Assembly: GCA_039588275.1 (NCBI GenBank)
Contig: JBDHAC010000083.1
Coordinates: 1 to 25,989 of the forward strand
Source: Gemmatimonadota bacterium
GTDB taxonomy: Bacteria > Gemmatimonadota > Gemmatimonadetes > Palauibacterales > Palauibacteraceae
Length of the DNA stretch: 25,989 nucleotides
Direction: 5' to 3'
In this document: one piece after another, positions 10,671 to 25,989 of the stretch
How positions within the stretch are numbered: the stretch's first letter is position 1
Layout of the letters: every line of letters begins with the position of its first letter
The notes under the pieces: generated by a model
The model's database searches: none
What the model was told of the DNA's origin: nothing
What the model saw: only the letters and a program-made list of their open reading frames with translations
Made by a program: the position numbers and the translations under genes

Positions 10671-11924
10671 TCATTCAGGGCTGGGATCTCGCCAGGGAAG
10701 GGCGCCCTCGCCCCAGGCCAGCTCTCCATCGATCACGGTCATGGTGCAGGCGTTGGGACGCAGGTGATAGAGCCACGTCTCGACGTCGGGTGCGTCCAGT
10801 ACTGCGAAATCAGCGGCTTTCCCCGGTTCCAGAGACCCGCAACGATCCTCCAGGCCCGCCGCGCGCGCGGCGTACAGCGTCGCTGCCTTCAACGCTTCTG
10901 CCGGGGTCATGCGCTGCCGCGTGCACGCGAGGGTCATGGCGAACGGCAGGTGGTAGCTCGGGGCCGTGCCGGGGTTGAAGTCCGTGGCGACGGCGACGGC
11001 GACTCCACCCTCGATCAGCGCCCTCGCCGGGGGCGGATCCTGGTTCAGGTAGAGCGTGGCGATCGGTAGGGTGACGGCAACGACGCCGCTCGTCGCCATC
11101 GCCGCGATCCCGTCCGAGGAGACGTGCTCGAGGTGATCGGCCGAAACGGCGCCCACTTCGGCCGCGAGCGCCGCACCACCGCCATCGCTCAGCTGATCCG
11201 CGTGCAGTTTCGACCCCAGCCCCAGCTTTCGGGCCGCCAACAGAAGCGTGCGTGCCTCCTCGAGCGTGAAGGCGGACTCCTCCACGAAGACGTCGCAGAA
11301 GCGCGCGAGTCCTGTCGCGGCTACTTCCGGGAGTAGCTCATCCAGCAACAGTCGTACGTATCCGGCGCGATCTGATTCGAACTCGACCGGTACCACGTGG
11401 GCACCCAGCAGGGTGGGGACGATCCGGAGGGGGCCTTCCTCCGACAGGCGCCGGTAGACGCGCAGGAGCTTGAGCTCGTCGGCGACCGAGAGACCGTACC
11501 CCGACTTGCACTCGATCGTGGCGACCCCGAGCCGAACCATATCGCGTGCGAAGCCCCGGCAGCGTGCGAGGAGCGCATCCTCGGCCAGTGCGCGAGTGCG
11601 CGACACGGTCGAAGCGATCCCGCCACCGCGCCGCGCGATGTCCAGGTAGGTCGCGCCCCTGATCCGATCCGCGAACTCTTCCGCACGCCAGCCGCCGAAC
11701 GCGAGGTGCGTGTGTGCGTCTACGAGGCCCGGGATCACCAGACGCCCGCCAGCATCCCACCTCTCCCAGTCCACGTACGGATCGGGAAGGTCGCGGGCGC
11801 TACCCACCCAACACACCGCGGCTCCGTCCCACGCGAGCGCTGCGTCGGTGATCACGCCCGCATCCGCCTGGCCATCGCCCGCAGCACACGTCGCGAGTCG
11901 GGCGATGTTCGTCAGGACGGGCAC
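10671..11924 (-). CDS. hutI: Imidazolonepropionase
   Basis: PGLVDAHTH, GGGIASTV, ECKSGYGL, LGAH, KLHADQL, ADHLE and ATDFNPG motifs; adjacent to hutU. Confidence 0.96.
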   Translation of the reverse strand: MPVLTNIARLATCAAGDGQADAGVITDAALAWDGAAVCWVGSARDLPDPYVDWERWDAGGRLVIPGLVDAHTHLAFGGWRAEEFADRIRGATYLDIARRGGGIASTVSRTRALAEDALLARCRGFARDMVRLGVATIECKSGYGLSVADELKLLRVYRRLSEEGPLRIVPTLLGAHVVPVEFESDRAGYVRLLLDELLPEVAATGLARFCDVFVEESAFTLEEARTLLLAARKLGLGSKLHADQLSDGGGAALAAEVGAVSADHLEHVSSDGIAAMATSGVVAVTLPIATLYLNQDPPPARALIEGGVAVAVATDFNPGTAPSYHLPFAMTLACTRQRMTPAEALKAATLYAARAAGLEDRCGSLEPGKAADFAVLDAPDVETWLYHLRPNACTMTVIDGELAWGEGALPWRDPSPE

Positions 11925-11972
11925 GGATCGCCTCGCGCGGCTCGATCGTGCGGGGGCACCGGCATGCGCTGG

Positions 11973-13640
11973 CTAGGGCTCCAACATGGGGAGATCCACG
12001 CCGCGCTCCCGTGCGGTGGCGATCGCCCCCTCATACCCGGCATCCGCGTGTCGCATCACACCGCTGCCGGGATCGGCGGTCAGCACGCGCTCCAGCCTGC
12101 GGCTGGCGGATTCGGTCCCGTCCACGACGCATACCATCCCGGCGTGTATCGAATACCCGATGCCGACCCCCCCTCCGTGGTGGACCGATACCCAACTCGC
12201 GCCGCAGGCCGTGTTCAGCATCGCGTTCAGGAGCGGCCAGTCCGCGATCGCGTCGGACCCGTCCAGCATGCCCTCGGTCTCGCGGTTGGGCGAGGCGACC
12301 GACCCGGTATCCAGGTGATCGCGGCCCAGCACGATGGGCGCCTTCAGCGCCCCGCTCCGCACGAGCTGGTTGAAGCGCTCTCCCATCTCCGCTCGTTCCC
12401 CGTACTCCAACCAGCAGATCCGCGCGGGGAGTCCCTGGAAGTGGACCTTCTCGCGAGCCTTTCGGATCCAGCGGACCAGGCTGTCCTTCTCGGGAAACGT
12501 CTCGAGCACGGCCTCATCGGTCACGGCGATGTCTTCGGGGTCACCGGAGAGTGCCGCCCACCGGAACGGCCCCGCCCCGCGGCAGAAGAGGGGTCGAATG
12601 AACTCCGGCACGAAGCCCGGGATATCGAAGGCCTCCTTCATGCCTCGGTTATCGGCCACCTGACCCCGCAGGTTGTTCCCGTAGTCGAACGTCACGGCGC
12701 CCGCCTCCTGCAAGGCCAGCATGGCCTCGACATGGACGACCATCGAGTCCAGCACCCGCTCTTCGTACCCGGCGGGATCGCGCTCGCTCATTTGGAGCGC
12801 GGCGTCTACCGACATGCCGGCCGGGATGTATCCGAGGCGCAGGTCGTGTGCGGCCGTCTGATCGGTCAGGACGTCGGGTACGATGCCGCGCTCTACGAGC
12901 TGTGGCAGGACATCGGCGATGTTGCCCAGCAGACCGATCGACAGGGCGTCGCCCTTCGACTTCGCGTCGAGCACCCACTCCAGGGCTTCGTCCAGATCGG
13001 TGCACAGCCGGTCGCAATACCCCGTATCGATGCGGCGACGGATCCGCTCCTCGCGGACTTCGACGCCCAGGAAGGCGGCGCCCGTCATGGTAGCGGCGAG
13101 TGGCTGCGCCCCTCCCATGCCACCGAGTCCGGCCGTCACCACCAACCGGCCCTCCATCGAACCTCCGAAACGCTGGCGCGCGCACTCGGCGAACGTCTCG
13201 TAGGTGCCCTGCAGGATCCCCTGCGTGCCGATGTAGATCCACGAGCCGGCCGTCATCTGCCCGAACATCGTGAGCCCGAGCGCCTCCAGGCGGCGGAACT
13301 CGTCCCATGTGGCCCAATTCGGCACCAGGTGCGCGTTCGCGATCAATACCCGCGGAGCCTCTTCATGGGTGCGGAACACGCCGACCGGCTTCCCGCTCTG
13401 AACGAGCAGCGTCTCGTCGTTCCCCAAGCGCCGGAGCGTGTGAACGATCTTCTCGTAGCACTCCCAGCTTCGGGCGGCGCGGCCGCTTCCACCGTACACG
13501 ATCAACTGGTCCGGATCTTCGGCCACTTCCGGATCCAGGTTGTTCATGAGCATCCTCAGGGCCGCCTCCTGGTGCCATCCTTTGCAGGAGATCTCCGTTC
13601 CCCGAGGCGCGCGTATCCGTCGGATCGCCGTGCCAGTCAT
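11973..13640 (-). CDS. hutU: Urocanate hydratase
   Basis: [50 protein letters not shown] and HHGGGVGIG motifs. Confidence 0.98.
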
Positions 13641-15256
13641 CGCGAGTCTCCCGGTCCTTCGTCTCCGAGCGCCTCCTCTCCGAGCGCCTCCTCTACCGCG
13701 TCGACGATGCCACCGCTGTCGATCAGCTCGACCAGGGTCTCGATGTCGGGAGCCAGCGCGCGGTCCTCCAAGACCGGCTCCACGCGCTCGCGGATCTTGG
13801 CGTACGCTCCGGTCGTTCCACGACCGAGCAGAGCAGGACCGTCTTCGCGCAGGTAGATGGCCTGCGCGGCCGCCAGCAGCTCGACGGCCACGACGTACTC
13901 CACGTTGTCTACGATCTCGCGCGCCCGGCGGGCAGCGTTCGCCCCCATGCTCACGTGGTCTTCCTGATTCGCGCTGGTCGGAATCGAGTCGACGCTATCC
14001 GGGTGGGCCAGGGTCTTGTTGTCCGATACGAGTGCCGCCGCCGTGTATTGGGCGCTCATGAGCCCGCCGTTCAGACCCGGATTCTCGGTCAACATCGCTG
14101 GAAGCCCCCTGGAAAGTTCGGGAGTGAGCAGCCGGAAGACGCGCCGGTCGCTGATGTTGGCGGCCTCTGCGATCGCGATCCCGAGCACATCCAGCCATAA
14201 CGCAGGGCCCGCACCATGGAAGTTCCCGCCCGAGACGGCTTTGCGATCCGAGTCCGCGCGATTAACGAAGATCAGCGGGTTGTCGGATGCGGCGTTCATC
14301 GCGGCTTCCACTCGCTCCTCGATGAACGCTAGCATGTCATGTATCGGCCCCAACACCTGCGGCGTGCACCTCACGCTATACGCGTCCTGAACCCGTTCGG
14401 GGTCCGAATCGACAAGCCCGCTCCCCGTCAGCAACGAGCGCAGACGGGCCGCGGTTCGCACCTGCCCGGGTTGCCCGTTCACATCGTGCAGGGAGGGGTG
14501 CAAGGCCTCGGAGAGCGCCCGAAGACCCTCCATGCTGAGTGCAGCCGCGATCTCGGCGTGGGCGAGGGTCCGCTTTGCATCGTGGACGGCGAGCGCTGCG
14601 GCGGCCACCATCATGGAGGTGCCGTTGGTGAGCGCGAGCCCCTCCTTCGCTTCGAGCACGGGCCGCGTGATATCGGCGCGCCGCATGGCTTCGTCGCCAC
14701 TGACGAGCTCGTCTCCGTACCAAGCTTCGCCGCTGAAGTCAGCGCGCATGCTCTCGGGCCCGCGCGTCGCGACGGCCGCGATGTGCGCGAGCGGAGCCAG
14801 GTCGCCGGAGGCCCCGAGCGAGCCCTTCGCGGGCACCCGGGGCGTGACCCCCCGATTCAACATGTCGACCAGCGTTTGTACGATCGCGGGGCGGATCCCC
14901 GAGACTCCCTTGGCGAGAGAATTGGCGCGGATCAGGAGCATCGCTCGCACGCTGTCCTCCGGGAGCGCGTCTCCCACCCCAACCGCACACTTGAGGATCA
15001 CGTTGCGAGACAGGAGGCCCGCGTCCTCGCTCGCGATCCGGTGGCTCGCGAGCGACCCGTAGCCGGTGTTCACGCCATAGATCGTCTCTTCATTCGACTC
15101 CAGCACTCCCTGAATCCAGCCGTAGCTGGCCTCCATCCGCTCGATGACGTCGGGCTCGAGCGGATCGACTGGAGCCCCCTCCCGGGCGACCGCGACGACG
15201 TCATCGATCCGAAGACCCTCACCGCGCATGCGGACGCGCGCACGGCCATCGTTCAT
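13637..15256 (-). CDS. hutH: Histidine ammonia-lyase (MIO-dependent aromatic amino acid lyase)
   Basis: [14 protein letters not shown] motif ([11 protein letters not shown]), [14 protein letters not shown] and [17 protein letters not shown] before ATG 15256; 4-bp overlap with hutU. Confidence 0.92.
13663..13692. repeat. Perfect in-frame 15-bp tandem duplication in the hutH 3' end
   Basis: CTCCGAGCGCCTCCT x2, encoding [10 protein letters not shown]. Confidence 0.8.
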
Positions 15257-15530
15257 CTCCCGCCTCCTGGTTGCCAGCGGCCGGGATCTCGCCCGGCAAG
15301 TCCCCCTCTCGGAGCCCACGTCGCCGTCGGCCATAATGTACGGAGTGCGACCCCGCGCCGGGACTGCCGGCGTTCGCACCCCAGCCGAGGGACGAGCCAT
15401 TGGCACGCGCGGGGGCTGTTTGGTAGCTTGGTACAGCAGTTCCTAACACATCGAGTCGTGCTAGTGGTCGGGTGGAGCGGATCGTGTCGGGTGGCGAGTG
15501 GGGAGGTGGGTTCGTGATGGGGTGACACTG

Positions 15531-16830
15531 GTGGCGGATCGAACCAAGCCGAAGCTGCTCATCGTCGACGATGAGCCGGCTCTCAGAGGCGCGCACGGTC
15601 ATCGAGCGACACGACCCCGACCTGGTGATCTCGGATGTCGTCCTTCCGGATCTCTCTGGGCTCGAGCTGTTGAAGCACCTCAAGGGGCAGGACAGTCTGC
15701 GCCCCGTCATCCTCATCACCGCGCACGGGAGCATCGATGCGGCCGTCGACGCGATGAAGAGCGGGGCCGACGACTTCCTCACCAAGCCGCTCGACTACGC
15801 AAAGCTCCAGGTTACCGTACGAGCCGCGCTCGAGGAGCTGCGACACCGCCGCGAGATCGGACGCGTGGAATCGATGCTCGACGCCGAGCCCGGCTTCGGC
15901 GCCTTGATCGGCATGAGTCCAAGCATGCGCGAGGTGTATCGTCTCATCGAGCAGCTCGCCGAAAGCGACGCGTCCGCGATCATCACGGGGGAGAGCGGGA
16001 CCGGCAAGGAGCTCGCGGCCCGCACGGTTCACGACATGGGTACCAGGCGTAATGGCCCGTTCGTGGCGATCAACACCGCTGCGATCCCCGATGGCCTGGT
16101 CGAGAGCGAAGTGTTCGGTCACGAGAAAGGAGCGTTCACGGGGGCCGCGCATCCGCGACCCGGCTGCTTCGAGCTCGCTGACGGCGGCACCCTGCTCCTG
16201 GATGAGATCGCGGAGATGCCGGCGACGATGCAGCCGAAGCTGCTCCGGATTCTCGAATCGGGCCGCGCGCGACGGGTGGGGGGAACCCGGGAGCGTTCCT
16301 TCGACGTGCGGGTGCTGGCGGCGACGAACCAGGATCCTGCGCAATCCGTCGAGGACGGCAAGCTCCGCGAGGACCTGCTGTACCGGCTGAACGTCTTCCA
16401 CATCACGCTGCCTCCCTTACGGGAGCACATGGAGGATCTCTCACTGCTCGCGCAGCACTTCATCCGGATCTTCAACGAGAAGCACGATGCGGCCGTGAGC
16501 GGCGTGGGCGAGGAGGCGCGCGAGCTTCTGGGAGCGTACCGGTGGACCGGAAACGTGCGGGAGCTGCGGAACGTGCTCGAGCGGGCGACGATCCTCGCTC
16601 GCGCCGGGTGGATCGACCCCACCCACCTTCCACCCTACCTGCGCGAGTCCGGCAACCAAAGGGAGGACGCGGTCGTGCTCCCGCTCGGGATCTCGGCCGC
16701 CGAGGCGGAGAAGCGCCTGATCCTCAAGACGCTCGAGGTGGTGGGCTACAACAAGGCGGCTGCCGCCCGACAACTGGGGATCGACGTCAAGACGATTCGG
16801 AACAAGCTGAAGCTCTATGGTGAGTCGTAG
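15531..16830 (+). pseudogene. Sigma54-dependent response regulator (REC-AAA+-Fis HTH) with an out-of-frame deletion in the REC domain
   Basis: MADRTKPKLLIVDDEPALR is in one frame; SEARTVIERHDPDLVISD, GESGTGKE, GAFTGA, LLLDEI, REDLLYRL, GNVREL and the C-terminal HTH are in another. The junction is at about 15582-15589. Confidence 0.85.
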
Positions 16831-16877: not shown

Positions 16878-18410
16878 ATGAGGGTCTCGACAAAGCTCGG
16901 ACTGGCTTTCGGGCTACTCGTATCGCTCGTCGTGGCGATGCTCGTGTACCACGTGTCTGTGATCCAGGAGGTCGCCAGGCTGAATCGTGATCTTTCGGCC
17001 GTGACCGTGCGACTCGCGCTCAGCTCGACGGACCAGCTCGGGCAACTCGACGACCTCGAGGAGAACGCGAGCAAATATCTCGTGACCGGCGACGAGGGCT
17101 ACCTCGAGGCGTACCGGCGATCGCGCCGCGCGTTTACCGGCTCGCTTCAGCAGCTCCGCGACCTGCCACTCACCGGGGATGAACAGGTTGAAGTCGAGCT
17201 CTTGTCCGGCCTGTGGAACGCGTTCTTGCGCACGGTCTCGCTCGGGGCATCGGCTGACTCGCTCGCGGCCGACGGTGATCTGTCCGCCCGACTCGCGGAC
17301 GTGGCGAACGAGGTGGAGCCTTTACGACGCCAGACGCTCCGGGTGAGCCAGGCCTCACAGCTCGCGATGGCGGCGACAGTGGAGCTCTCCACGGCAGCCG
17401 CGCGGCGTGCGAGCCGCATGTCGGGCGGTGCCGGCGTGGCGGCCGCTCTGGCCGCCGTGTTGCTGGCCCTCATCATCGTCAGGTCCATCTCGGAGCGCCT
17501 CGGCCAACTGAAGCGGGGCGCACAGGGCGTAGCGGAGGGCGACTTCTCCGTGCGGGTGGACACGCAGGGATCCGATGAGTTCTCCGAGGTCGCGCAGACT
17601 TTCAACGCCATGACGGAGCGGCTCGGTGAGCTGGACCGGATGAAGCGCGACTTCCTCTCGCAGGTCTCCCACGATCTGAAGACGCCGCTCGCGTCCATAC
17701 ACGAGACCAATCAACTCTTGCTGGACCAGCTCCCCGGGGAACTGAACGAAAAGCAGCGACATCTCCTCCGGCTCACGACCCGGAGCGCCGACCGACTCTC
17801 CATCATGATCGGCAAGTTGCTCGACATGGCGCGGCTCGACGCCGGGGCGATCGAGTACGAGTTCCGGGAGCACGAGGTGGGGGCTCTCATCCGGGCAGCC
17901 GTTTTGGAGATCATCTCGCAGGCGGCAGATCGCGGGCTGCGCATCGAGACCGAACTGCCGAACCGCGCGGTACACATCGAATGCGACGGGGATCGGGTAA
18001 CCCAGGTCGTGATCAATCTGCTCGAGAACGCCGTCAAGTTCTCGGATCCTGGAAGCCGAGTCGTCGTACGGGTCGAGTGCCTTGACGGCGGGGCGTTCCA
18101 GCTTGCGACCCCTTCTACGCGCGAGAGAGGGGGCGAGGTGGCTCGAATCTCGGTCCTCGACCGTGGACCGGGGATTCCGAGCGCCGACAAACGCAGGATC
18201 TTCGACCGGTTTCACCAGGCAGCCTCCGCAGGGCGCGATACCGAGCGCGGCGTGGGTCTCGGACTCGCGATATGTCGAGAGATCGCGACCGCGCACGCGG
18301 GCGAGGTCCAGGTGACGGACCGTAGCGGAGGCGGGAGCGTCTTCTCGCTCCTCATCCCCAATGCTCGGACAGAATGGGCCGAGGCCGAGTTGGCCCGCAC
18401 GGGGACGTAG
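16878..18410 (+). CDS. Membrane sensor histidine kinase with HAMP domain (GlrK/QseE-like)
   Basis: Two TM helices around a periplasmic helical domain; HAMP (DEFSEVAQTFNAM), VSHDLKTPL, NLLENAVKF, DRGPGI and GVGLGL. Confidence 0.95.
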   Translation: MRVSTKLGLAFGLLVSLVVAMLVYHVSVIQEVARLNRDLSAVTVRLALSSTDQLGQLDDLEENASKYLVTGDEGYLEAYRRSRRAFTGSLQQLRDLPLTGDEQVEVELLSGLWNAFLRTVSLGASADSLAADGDLSARLADVANEVEPLRRQTLRVSQASQLAMAATVELSTAAARRASRMSGGAGVAAALAAVLLALIIVRSISERLGQLKRGAQGVAEGDFSVRVDTQGSDEFSEVAQTFNAMTERLGELDRMKRDFLSQVSHDLKTPLASIHETNQLLLDQLPGELNEKQRHLLRLTTRSADRLSIMIGKLLDMARLDAGAIEYEFREHEVGALIRAAVLEIISQAADRGLRIETELPNRAVHIECDGDRVTQVVINLLENAVKFSDPGSRVVVRVECLDGGAFQLATPSTRERGGEVARISVLDRGPGIPSADKRRIFDRFHQAASAGRDTERGVGLGLAICREIATAHAGEVQVTDRSGGGSVFSLLIPNARTEWAEAELARTGT

Positions 18411-18416
18411 ACCGCG

Positions 18417-19034
18417 ATGAACCGCACTCCGCTGGCCTTGCCGATCCTGTTGGTGGCCCTCGCGGCTGGGTGCGCGACGAGCGTATTCGACAAGCACTTC
18501 GAGCGGGGAAGGTACGCCGCCGCCGCTGCCGCATTCGAGCAGGACAGCGCGCTCCGCTATGACGAGCGTTCGCTGTTCCGTGCAGGGCTCGTGCACGCGT
18601 TCCCGTCCTCCGACGCGTTCGATCCCTCGCTGGCGCTGGAGTACTTCGCGCGACTCGACTCGCTGTTTCCGGACAACCCCTACCGGGTCGAGGCACGTCG
18701 CATCGGCGCGCTCCTGGAGGATCGCAGCCGTCTTCAATCGGAGTTGGAGCTTCATCGCTCCGACCTGGACGACCTGCGCGCCCGGATCGCGCGGTTCGCC
18801 GATCGCGAAAGGCGGCTGGAGCGAAGAGGTGCGGAGCGGGACGCCGAGGTGGCCCGTCTGGAGGCTCAGGCCGCCCTGCTCGAAAGCCAGCTACGTGAGC
18901 GCTCCGTCGAGCTCGCGGCGTTACGGCAAGAGCTCGAGCGACTCAAAGCCATCGATCTGAGGTCGTCTAGATCCCGGAGCCGTTCAGGTGATGGGGGGCC
19001 CGATACCACGGGAAGCGACGGGCGACCGAGGTAA
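18417..19034 (+). CDS. Lipoprotein with TPR-like helices and coiled coil (QseG/YfhG-like)
   Basis: Lipobox LAAG-C; C-terminal coiled coil ending ELERLKAID; 6 bp after the kinase gene. Confidence 0.8.
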   Translation: MNRTPLALPILLVALAAGCATSVFDKHFERGRYAAAAAAFEQDSALRYDERSLFRAGLVHAFPSSDAFDPSLALEYFARLDSLFPDNPYRVEARRIGALLEDRSRLQSELELHRSDLDDLRARIARFADRERRLERRGAERDAEVARLEAQAALLESQLRERSVELAALRQELERLKAIDLRSSRSRSRSGDGGPDTTGSDGRPR

Positions 19035-19893
19035 ACGGGAATTCCGACAGAAGACGCTCGAGACGCGGCAGCGTCACCCGCCACCTGGCTGCATGGCGAA
19101 GCCGGCGGAGGAGGGAGGCGCGCAGGAGCGGTTGAACGACATCGGCTTCCCATGAACGGACGTGCAGGACAGCGGCCGTGCGGGTCGACGCATGTGAGGC
19201 CACCGCGCGATGGGTCAAGGCGAATGGAAGCAGCCGGAGTGACTCTCCACCCGCCCTCGGCAGCCGTAATCCCCCGAGCCGCACCGGGGTCGGTGGGATT
19301 TCCAGCACGGCTCCGCTCGGAGACCGGATCCAGTGGGGGAAGAGGGACCGCGCGCCGCGGAGATGGCTCCGCAATGTCGGAGTGAGGCTCGAGTCGTACT
19401 GATACCCCTCTTCGATGAGGACCTGGAACGCCCAGTGGCTCGCGGACCGAAGCGACCGGTCCGGTGCCCTGAACCCGACCACCGACCCCCCGGAGATGTC
19501 CTCGAGCACGGCCCGGTCGCTTCTCAGCCCGTGCCGCATTTGTCTGGAAGTCATGTAGGCCAGCGGGCGAGGCCACCAACCCAGGACGGCCAGCTCGTGA
19601 CCGGCATTCGCGATTGCCCGAACGACGCTCGGGTGTTTCAGGCCGATCCAGCCGAGAGTGAAAAAGGTGGCTCTGGCGTCATATCGCGCGAGAGCCTCGA
19701 GCAACGACTCCACACACCGCTCGAGCCGGCTCGGCATGACCTCCCAGTCTTCCAACGAGATCACACCGTTGAAGGCGGGGATCTGGAAGTACTCCAGGAC
19801 ATCTATGGTGAGGGCATGGGCGGGCGCTTCGCTGGCCAGATATGAAGCGCCGCCCGGCCGGAGAGCACGTGGAGGGGTAATCGCGGCATCCAC
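18967..19893 (-). CDS. Polysaccharide deacetylase family protein (XrtA/PEP-CTERM-associated type, DUF3473) with degenerate active site
   Basis: ALTIDV, ATFFTLGW, GHEL, GFRAP, GYQYDSS and GGESLRLLP. GTG at 19893 follows a GGGGAG SD; alternative start at 19935. Confidence 0.85.
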   Translation of the reverse strand: MDAAITPPRALRPGGASYLASEAPAHALTIDVLEYFQIPAFNGVISLEDWEVMPSRLERCVESLLEALARYDARATFFTLGWIGLKHPSVVRAIANAGHELAVLGWWPRPLAYMTSRQMRHGLRSDRAVLEDISGGSVVGFRAPDRSLRSASHWAFQVLIEEGYQYDSSLTPTLRSHLRGARSLFPHWIRSPSGAVLEIPPTPVRLGGLRLPRAGGESLRLLPFALTHRAVASHASTRTAAVLHVRSWEADVVQPLLRASLLRRLRHAARWRVTLPRLERLLSEFPFTSVARRFPWYRAPHHLNGSGI

Positions 19894-19936
19894 GTCCAGC
19901 TCCCCGGACCGGAGCGGCACACATGGGCCTTGCATG

Positions 19937-20182
19937 CGGACGGGCGGGGATCAGGAGCCGTGGCGTACGACCGCTAGCTCTGTATGACGGCTCCCATCCA
20001 CACCCTCGGAATGACGCTTCGAGGCGCCACCCTTCACATCCCTCGTCTCGAGCTCCACGATCCGCACGTCCAGGCTCCCGGGTAAGACCGATCCCCCCGC
20101 CCATCGACGGACCACGTCTGGTGCGTGGCCCGTCGGCCTGCGGCGCCCGAGCGGGTCCAACCGAACGCGGCGCCGCAGGAAC
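19937..20182 (-). ncRNA. Candidate structured ncRNA or long structured 5' leader
   Basis: At least seven nested or adjacent stems found by eye, with mismatches resolving as G-U pairs on the minus strand. Begins just downstream of a sigma54 promoter. No known family recognised. Confidence 0.5.
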
Positions 20183-20192
20183 GATCTTCAAA

Positions 20193-20208
20193 AGCAACAC
20201 GCGGGCCA
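20193..20208 (-). promoter_or_regulatory. Sigma54 (-24/-12) promoter
   Basis: Minus strand TGGCCCGCGTGTTGCT has exact GG-N10-GC spacing and is close to the TGGCACG-N4-TTGCW consensus. Confidence 0.75.
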
Positions 20209-20225
20209 CGACGTGCGTGACACGT

Positions 20226-20238
20226 TATGTGTCTGATT
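20226..20238 (-). promoter_or_regulatory. IHF-like binding site
   Basis: Minus strand AATCAGACACATA has one mismatch to WATCAR-N4-TTR and sits in an AT-rich patch between the promoter and the upstream palindromes. Confidence 0.5.
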
Positions 20239-20293
20239 TGTAGTCGGTTAAGGTCGATGCCGTGCTGGGAGGGTACTCCGTGAAAGACGATGA

Positions 20294-20342
20294 ATCGGGG
20301 AAGCCTTCCCCGATCGGCGTCGGCGTGGCGGGAATTTTTCCC
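20294..20342. promoter_or_regulatory. Pair of GGGAA-N3-TTCCC palindromes, candidate enhancer (UAS) for a sigma54 activator
   Basis: ATCGGGGAAgccTTCCCCGAT (20294-20314) and GGGAAtttTTCCC (20330-20342); centres are 32 bp apart. Confidence 0.55.
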
Positions 20343-22271: not shown

Positions 22272-22346
22272 GGTGGGCGTAGCTCAGTCGGTTAGAGCGC
22301 CAGGTTGTGGCCCTGGAGGTCGCGGGTTCGAATCCCGTCGCTCACC
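22272..22346 (+). tRNA. tRNA-His(GTG) with G-1:C73, CCA not encoded
   Basis: G+GTGGGCG/CGCTCAC+C acceptor stem, anticodon arm CCAGG-TTGTGGC-CCTGG, T-loop TTCGAAT. Confidence 0.97.

Positions 22347-25800: not shown

Positions 25801-25989
<189 letters not shown>

Follow-up and report, generated by a model that had tools for sequence, protein, structure and literature searches.

The minus strand of the window, a stretch of 25,989 nucleotides from a Gemmatimonadota genome, carries a candidate structured RNA of about 338 nt, predicted to begin at a sigma54 promoter and to enter the start of a polysaccharide deacetylase homologue. The structure is real and longer than first described, and its sequence and minus-strand pairing are conserved far above the neutral level in two genomes and several partial contigs. 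We give an even chance to the reading in which this RNA is a cis-acting translational gate, the 5' leader of a sigma54 transcript for the deacetylase gene. A leader is somewhat favoured over a small RNA, since the start region of that gene and the 3' hairpin overlap. The features are collected in Table 1. The source genome, G000, is 86% complete with 67% GC, and C83, C19, C43 and C75 are contigs of it.

Table 1. Features of the locus, with positions in the window
Feature	Position	Strand	Basis or remark
sigma54-dependent response regulator of the triad	15571..16830	+	
Sensor histidine kinase of the triad (CHASE3-like, HAMP, HisKA, HATPase)	16878..18410	+	
Triad lipoprotein (invariant Cys, TPR-like helices, long coiled coil)	18417..19034	+	model pLDDT 85.6
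XrtA-type polysaccharide deacetylase homologue	18967..19893	-	TIGR03006 216.9 bits, cut-off 276.2
Conserved structured RNA, ~338 nt	19845..20182	-	folding z and identity with G002
3' hairpin: 27 bp, 3-nt bulge, invariant 15-nt loop	19847..19920	-	fold and conservation
Alternative deacetylase-like start: in-frame ATG, no Shine-Dalgarno	19933..19935	-	15 nt past the stop of the short frame
38-codon open frame, GGAG and GTG start buried in rod	19951..20067	-	no sign of peptide selection
Core rod with three-way junction	19952..20080	-	45 pairs; 7 vary, all kept, 2 both-sided
Core-rod parts: purine-rich linker; two hairpins	20049-20033; 20032-20009, 20003-19982	-	
Two 5' hairpins	20179-20137 and 20134-20106	-	fold; 71/77 positions identical in G002
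sigma54 -24/-12 promoter	20192..20208	-	kept in G002; predicted +1 at 20182
AT-rich stretch at the expected IHF position	20219..20256	.	inferred; imperfect match to the consensus in the available text of PMC3045617
Upstream activating site 2, GGGAA-N3-TTCCC	20298..20310	.	102 nt upstream
Upstream activating site 1, GGGAA-N3-TTCCC palindrome	20330..20342	.	134 nt before the -24 element

With regard to the fold, the first-pass annotation had described a structured RNA of about 245 nt, and the stems that it named are all present, including the perfect 11-bp stem 20137-20147/20169-20179. The comparison with shuffled controls on both strands, which it had proposed, supports the structure: for 19937-20182 the predicted minus-strand energy is -139.3 kcal/mol (z -4.74), a stability that 0/200 shuffles reach, and the plus strand gives z -3.10. 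A z of -3 is reached by none of 126 random 246-nt windows of G000. The extent had to be revised: the conserved element ends only near 19845, and its added part holds a 27-bp hairpin that had been missed. At this length, z is -4.2 in G000 and -3.9 in G002, a genome of the same genus. G-U pairs account for 12 of the 88 minus-strand pairs predicted for 19937-20182. Of the long closing helix proposed earlier, the core rod is retained, its pairing being kept in G002, whereas the outer helix 20094-20105/19939-19950 is not kept in register (6/12 pairs break); a shorter, shifted outer helix re-forms there in G002. One stem pair of the first 5' hairpin (20179-20137) also breaks in G002. The core has an alternative fold, in which 20007-19987 pairs with the 3' strand of the rod. 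This fold lies above the minimum by 6.0 kcal/mol in G000 and by 1.6 kcal/mol in G002, and in a longer sequence context it becomes the minimum-energy fold of G000.

The distribution of the RNA is narrow. A DNA search of 61 relatives returned one full homologue, that of G002, and the remaining 12 genomes with matches hold merely pieces of 25-50 nt. The genus has a third genome, 84% complete, in which neither the RNA nor the kinase nor the TM2 gene has a match, and outside the genus the TM2 gene is unlinked to the RNA (28 non-genus loci of the 30 fetched). Covariance models of the rod (R1) and of the last hairpin (R2) retrieved from 114 family genomes just their own source genomes, G000 and G002, and in 151 class genomes R1 retrieved G000 and one chance-level match (E 0.33). 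An exact pattern search of the genome contig collection gave a single match, the G002 contig. Partial homologous contigs are present in 8/8 runs examined, from sediment, beach sand, marine or unspecified metagenomes. Homologous contigs occur in two metatranscriptome runs (X19 and X20; 40 of 71 differences covered), from which transcription of the RNA is not concluded, because contig depth cannot rank genes and one X19 contig continues for 187 nt in the direction of the promoter and through it.

Between G000 and G002, 305/338 positions of the RNA are identical (90%); the figure from the enhancer to the start site is 90/160 (56%), and at the fourfold sites of six neighbouring genes 400/973 have changed (41%). 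The core structure, derived from G000, comprises 72 pairs, of which nine vary and all nine stay paired, three through both-sided changes and six through wobble-type changes that are compatible with the minus strand. As a test of covariation this is not significant, since only two full sequences are compared; for the same reason, the pair-shuffle control (129/500 and 251/500) is uninformative. In a fixed register, some pairs of the two small hairpins break in the partial contigs (2/10 touched in X19 and 3/5 in X10, by hand tally), and the X10 hairpins, judged by eye, re-form with a one-base slip.

We consider it very improbable that the region is what an inserted mobile or repeated element left behind, without selection, or that its fold arose by chance from GC content. 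The limitation to one genus and the 70% GC would fit such an origin, but the RNA is single copy in G000, one 22-nt pattern of it has 0 matches in viral contigs, its conservation lies far above that of neutral sites, and the wobble-type changes fit minus-strand pairing. It is just as hard to credit that the region mainly codes for a small protein and that the fold is incidental. The 38-codon frame has a GGAG and is open in G002, but its residue changes are as frequent as silent-site changes (8/39 codons change residue, and 3/20 fourfold sites change). The 69-, 106- and 176-aa frames, tried as genes, were rejected on account of stops or a frameshift in G002, and none of them has a Pfam match; codon-type selection on the 69-aa frame, raised earlier as a possibility, is contradicted by both a frameshift and a stop in that genome.

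The RNA does not match any Rfam family at gathering score or below E 1, and just three matches, with E 1 to 4.2, lie near the region. In agreement with the first-pass annotation, it matches no Rfam model of SRP, RNase P, tmRNA or known riboswitches, nor of 6S. An SRP-like gene is found elsewhere in G000 (contig C44, 39.6 bits vs a cut-off of 40), and 6S has no match anywhere in G000, with a model that passed its own cut-off in 4/14 controls. Within the window, the matches at gathering score are two tRNAs (369-442 and 22273-22346) and the start of the 16S rRNA gene (25801-25989) alone.

A protein sponge of the CsrB/RsmZ type, acting through GGA motifs, or a GlmY-like decoy for RapZ is largely refuted, and we attach next to no probability to either. 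The nine GGA triplets counted earlier are present, and the RNA shares this trait with CsrB/RsmZ-type sponges, but their number is at chance level: the shuffle mean is 7.05 and at least nine occur in 215/1000 shuffles. The triplets are mostly paired as well, two of the nine being fully unpaired and one sitting in an unpaired junction. The gene content of the triad, like that of QseE/QseG/QseF, and a kinase match discussed below would suit a decoy. Nevertheless, RapZ and CsrA were each found in 0/6 genomes searched and Hfq in 0/5 (G000, 86% complete; G017, 98%), the six being G000 and five relatives, and Rfam offers no match. The enhancer differs from that of GlrR, and the searches of these genomes for RapZ, CsrA and Hfq were negative. 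We conclude that the RNA is not GlmY and that a CsrA sponge is unlikely; a GlmY-like role is thus not supported.

The 3' hairpin is predicted to bury the GGAG at 19903-19900 and the GTG at 19893-19891 of the deacetylase gene. The codons within it show 0/19 fourfold-site changes (binomial P 4e-5 vs the six neighbouring genes), and in the 12 codons past it 4/6 fourfold sites have changed. Four partial contigs show no change in the hairpin parts that they cover, and three diverge in the DNA directly after it, at 19843-19849. The double change 19904:19861 retains its pair, and the Shine-Dalgarno of G002 is thereby better. Opening the stretch from GGAG to GTG is predicted to cost 20.0 kcal/mol, the highest of 140 comparable G000 starts (site included; median 7.5), and 22 kcal/mol in G002. 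This cost falls from 26.5 kcal/mol at 4 C to 17.8 kcal/mol at 50 C; an RNA thermometer was rejected, the stem being too stable with that much left at 50 C. A direct repeat of the start region is marginal (32/1000 shuffles).

The linker behind the hairpin is conserved at the protein level in the 7/7 orthologues covering it, and in the loose ends of X4 and X18, judged by eye, its conserved Leu has no codon that could serve as a start. From these observations two alternative starts of the gene are predicted: GTG 19893, which a GGAG precedes by 6 nt, and ATG 19935, which lacks one.

The deacetylase gene itself lies on the strand of the RNA and intervenes between the RNA and the triad, which had been taken to adjoin each other; it overlaps the 3' end of the lipoprotein gene by 68 nt. 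Its product is without the conserved acidic residue (Glu) and two His of the family in all orthologues covering these positions. The motifs DVEEY and HEIASHGWWH-type of the relatives and of the C75 paralogue become DV(L/Q)EY and HELA(V/L)LGWW(P/R/S) in the orthologues, and the C75 paralogue keeps its metal-ligand motifs. We take the altered positions to be the catalytic or metal-ligand residues known from CE4 enzymes, and the homologue is likely an inactive pseudo-enzyme. Purifying selection still acts on the gene (23% residue vs 50% fourfold change), and seven further close orthologues, 78-84% identical, were found in the protein collection. When metagenomes were scanned with the deacetylase, 38 relatives came up, distant and apparently active, and none had an RNA match; a search of the literature on the XrtA deacetylase gave no papers.

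The minus-strand sigma54 promoter reported by the first-pass annotation is present as a -24/-12 site at 20208-20192, which predicts +1 near 20182. An RpoN box is present in G000, and the spacing of activating site 1 is identical at C19:839 and C43:1179 of G000, in G001 and in G002. The palindrome of activating site 2 scores as a terminator-like hairpin 3' of the TM2 gene. Among 703 loose sigma54-like sites in G000, six have the palindrome nearby and three have it at exactly 134 nt (C83, C19 and C43); a promoter profile search of the genome gave these three training sites as its only strong matches. The two further copies, C19:705-855 and C43:1045-1195, are mutually similar beyond the motifs. 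The C19 promoter drives a 268-aa protein without a Pfam match, and the C43 promoter precedes a 56-aa frame and a further gene, which we take to be TadG-like. A lone perfect enhancer palindrome is present at C11:68305, about 500 nt from the contig end. The apparent 5' similarity of the RNA to the C19 leader and to a transcript of G114 is equalled by 141 and 232 of 1000 shuffles, and shared descent is not claimed, since this similarity is non-significant.

In relatives, an enhancer and a sigma54 site lie by the triad at 13/17 loci (one by eye) and at 13/32 further loci, 26/49 in total. This pairing with the triad supports the original proposal of an undescribed minus-strand RNA with a sigma54 promoter under triad control. 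As the enhancers co-occur with the triad, we infer that the triad regulator would bind them and likely switches the promoter on. The triad resembles QseE/QseG/QseF in make-up, since its cluster combines a membrane kinase with a lipoprotein and a sigma54 regulator. The sole PDB match of the kinase that extends to the membrane region is 9m08 (E 1.8e-21, 14th of 19), the deposit of a QseG-QseE study. PF13942 (QseG) does not match the lipoprotein gene, and among the matches listed in its fold searches TPR proteins are present and QseG is absent. Divergent from the regulator, on the minus strand at 10671-15406 of the window, lie three genes that presumably encode histidine ammonia-lyase, urocanate hydratase and imidazolonepropionase.

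What these promoters drive differs between genera: in most cases exported proteins, otherwise an ECF sigma factor, in one genus a stand-alone RNA, and here the long RNA. At 20/26 triad promoters of relatives, a protein gene starts about 40-140 nt past the predicted +1; these genes mostly have signal-peptide-like ends (by reading), and one encodes an ECF-type sigma factor. Of the other six, four are followed by a non-coding stretch (genus g17 accounts for three, G114 for the fourth), another is truncated at the end of its contig, and the last is G002. The ECF-type gene follows a triad-type enhancer pair (L104:3181 onward, G024) and echoes the control of rpoE by QseF in E. coli, as given in the available text of PMC6075780. 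In G114 (L175, sigma54 site at 2104, minus), about 180 nt without a clear gene extend from the triad-type promoter to a convergent gene, with a z of -0.6, not above shuffles. The triad promoter is often aimed at the 3' end of the lipoprotein gene (L089, L090, L091, L093, L160, L161, L163, L164, L167, L172 and L174), as it is here, and in genus g20, at L161, the gene that it drives reaches into that end. Transcription converging in this way could exert feedback on the triad.

Genus g17 carries, in 3/3 genomes, a stand-alone RNA candidate of about 200 nt (L154:1520-1712, plus strand, in G032; L155 in G018; L156 in G103). It has the same enhancer and sigma54 site, is divergent from the triad regulator and has a convergent beta-propeller gene behind it. 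Its z is about -6 (G032, G103), its copies are about 90% identical and it has no Rfam match. Its parts, first a 5' hairpin, then a rod and finally a long, bulged hairpin at the 3' end, come in an order similar to that of the 338-nt RNA.

This candidate argues for the chief rival of the gate, namely a released RNA of about 340 nt, stand-alone or dual-output, that acts in trans without Hfq and whose last hairpin is a terminator or processing barrier. Its invariant C-rich loop might, for instance, pair with G-rich ribosome-binding sites. The dead deacetylase would then be carried along by read-through. We regard this as possible, at clearly less than an even chance. The conservation of the entire 338 nt and the U-rich run behind the hairpin in G002 and X19 are in its favour, as are GlmY and Pxr, described as sigma54 RNAs beside their own two-component systems in the available texts of PMC3045617 and PMC10217877. 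In contrast, G000 has a weak U-run and X4 and X8 have a poor one, and the conserved downstream frame has to start within the hairpin or ahead of it. No significant similarity to the g17 RNA emerges in either direction: alignments are no better than shuffles, and the covariance models, which are weak because each is built from 2-3 near-identical sequences, give 9.9 and 11.6 bits at best (E 1.1 and 0.5).

For the cis gate, we count the cost of opening the hairpin together with the conserved start region, predicted to be buried, the protein genes behind 20/26 triad promoters, and the two core folds present in both genomes. The stand-alone g17 RNA under the same promoter type counts against it, and the 5' hairpins, equally conserved though far from the start codon, count against a simple gate. 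As a mechanism, the triad regulator would bind the enhancers and trigger sigma54 transcription of the primary RNA, in which the last hairpin is predicted to keep the GGAG and GTG buried, so that the gene would stay untranslated until the fold opens. The weakest step is the release of this lock, which may occur through a switch of the two-state core or through a factor binding the invariant loop. The switch might plausibly let a ribosome run through the 38-codon frame and then restart at ATG 19935. Ribosome coupling is a possible key because this frame ends 15 nt before that ATG, and it is a weak step because the 38-codon peptide shows no selection. The gate and a released RNA can both hold if the hairpin also ends some transcripts.

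A broader proposal, to which we assign a small probability, is that the QseEGF-like triad of Gemmatimonadota independently recruited unrelated large RNAs in different genera, here a two-state, dual-purpose RNA of 340 nt whose action in trans would require none of Hfq, CsrA and RapZ and which would, in addition, gate a dead deacetylase. If so, the catalytically dead deacetylase could tune the active exopolysaccharide deacetylase of the cell. The reach of the present findings is one genus and two full sequences. They provide Gemmatimonadota with a structured regulatory RNA candidate that has a defined promoter and a new enhancer motif; the literature searched describes no such structured RNA for the phylum, although supplementary motif tables could hold one.

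Among known systems, leaders that sequester the ribosome-binding site include translational riboswitches, RNA thermometers and translationally silent primary mRNAs. The present RNA is like them in the stable hairpin predicted over Shine-Dalgarno and start codon, a conserved stem covering both, and in the two-state domain upstream. It differs from them in that Rfam detects no known aptamer and in that the gated gene is a likely pseudo-enzyme. The sigma54 RNA Pxr of Myxococcus xanthus, which in the available text of PMC10217877 depends on the adjacent two-component system PxrK/PxrR, has several stem-loops and is processed from a longer precursor. The RNA described here shares the neighbouring two-component system and the several stem-loops, but it is longer, overlaps a start region, belongs to a different phylum and has no Rfam match.

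GlmY is likewise a sigma54 RNA beside its own two-component system, as far as the available text of PMC3045617 describes it. The two RNAs differ in that there is no sequence or Rfam match, in that the enhancer is GGGAA-N3-TTCCC here and TGTC-N10-GACA, the GlrR consensus site, in that text, and in that RapZ and Hfq were not found. In addition, QseG is not among the matches listed for the lipoprotein, the RNA faces the operon from downstream and enters a gene, and most triad promoters of the relatives drive protein genes. In contrast, the arrangement is much alike in both: a structured RNA, a sigma54 promoter, upstream enhancers and an IHF-type stretch, near genes for a sensor kinase of the four-helix type, for a lipoprotein and for a sigma54 regulator, as with QseE (GlrK), QseG and QseF (GlrR) of Enterobacteriaceae in the available texts of PMC3045617 and PMC12691602. 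The locus therefore belongs to a known kind, that of sigma54 RNAs beside their own regulators, like GlmY and, in the available text of PMC10217877, Pxr; the RNA family, the enhancer motif and the overlap with the start of a likely pseudo-enzyme gene are new.
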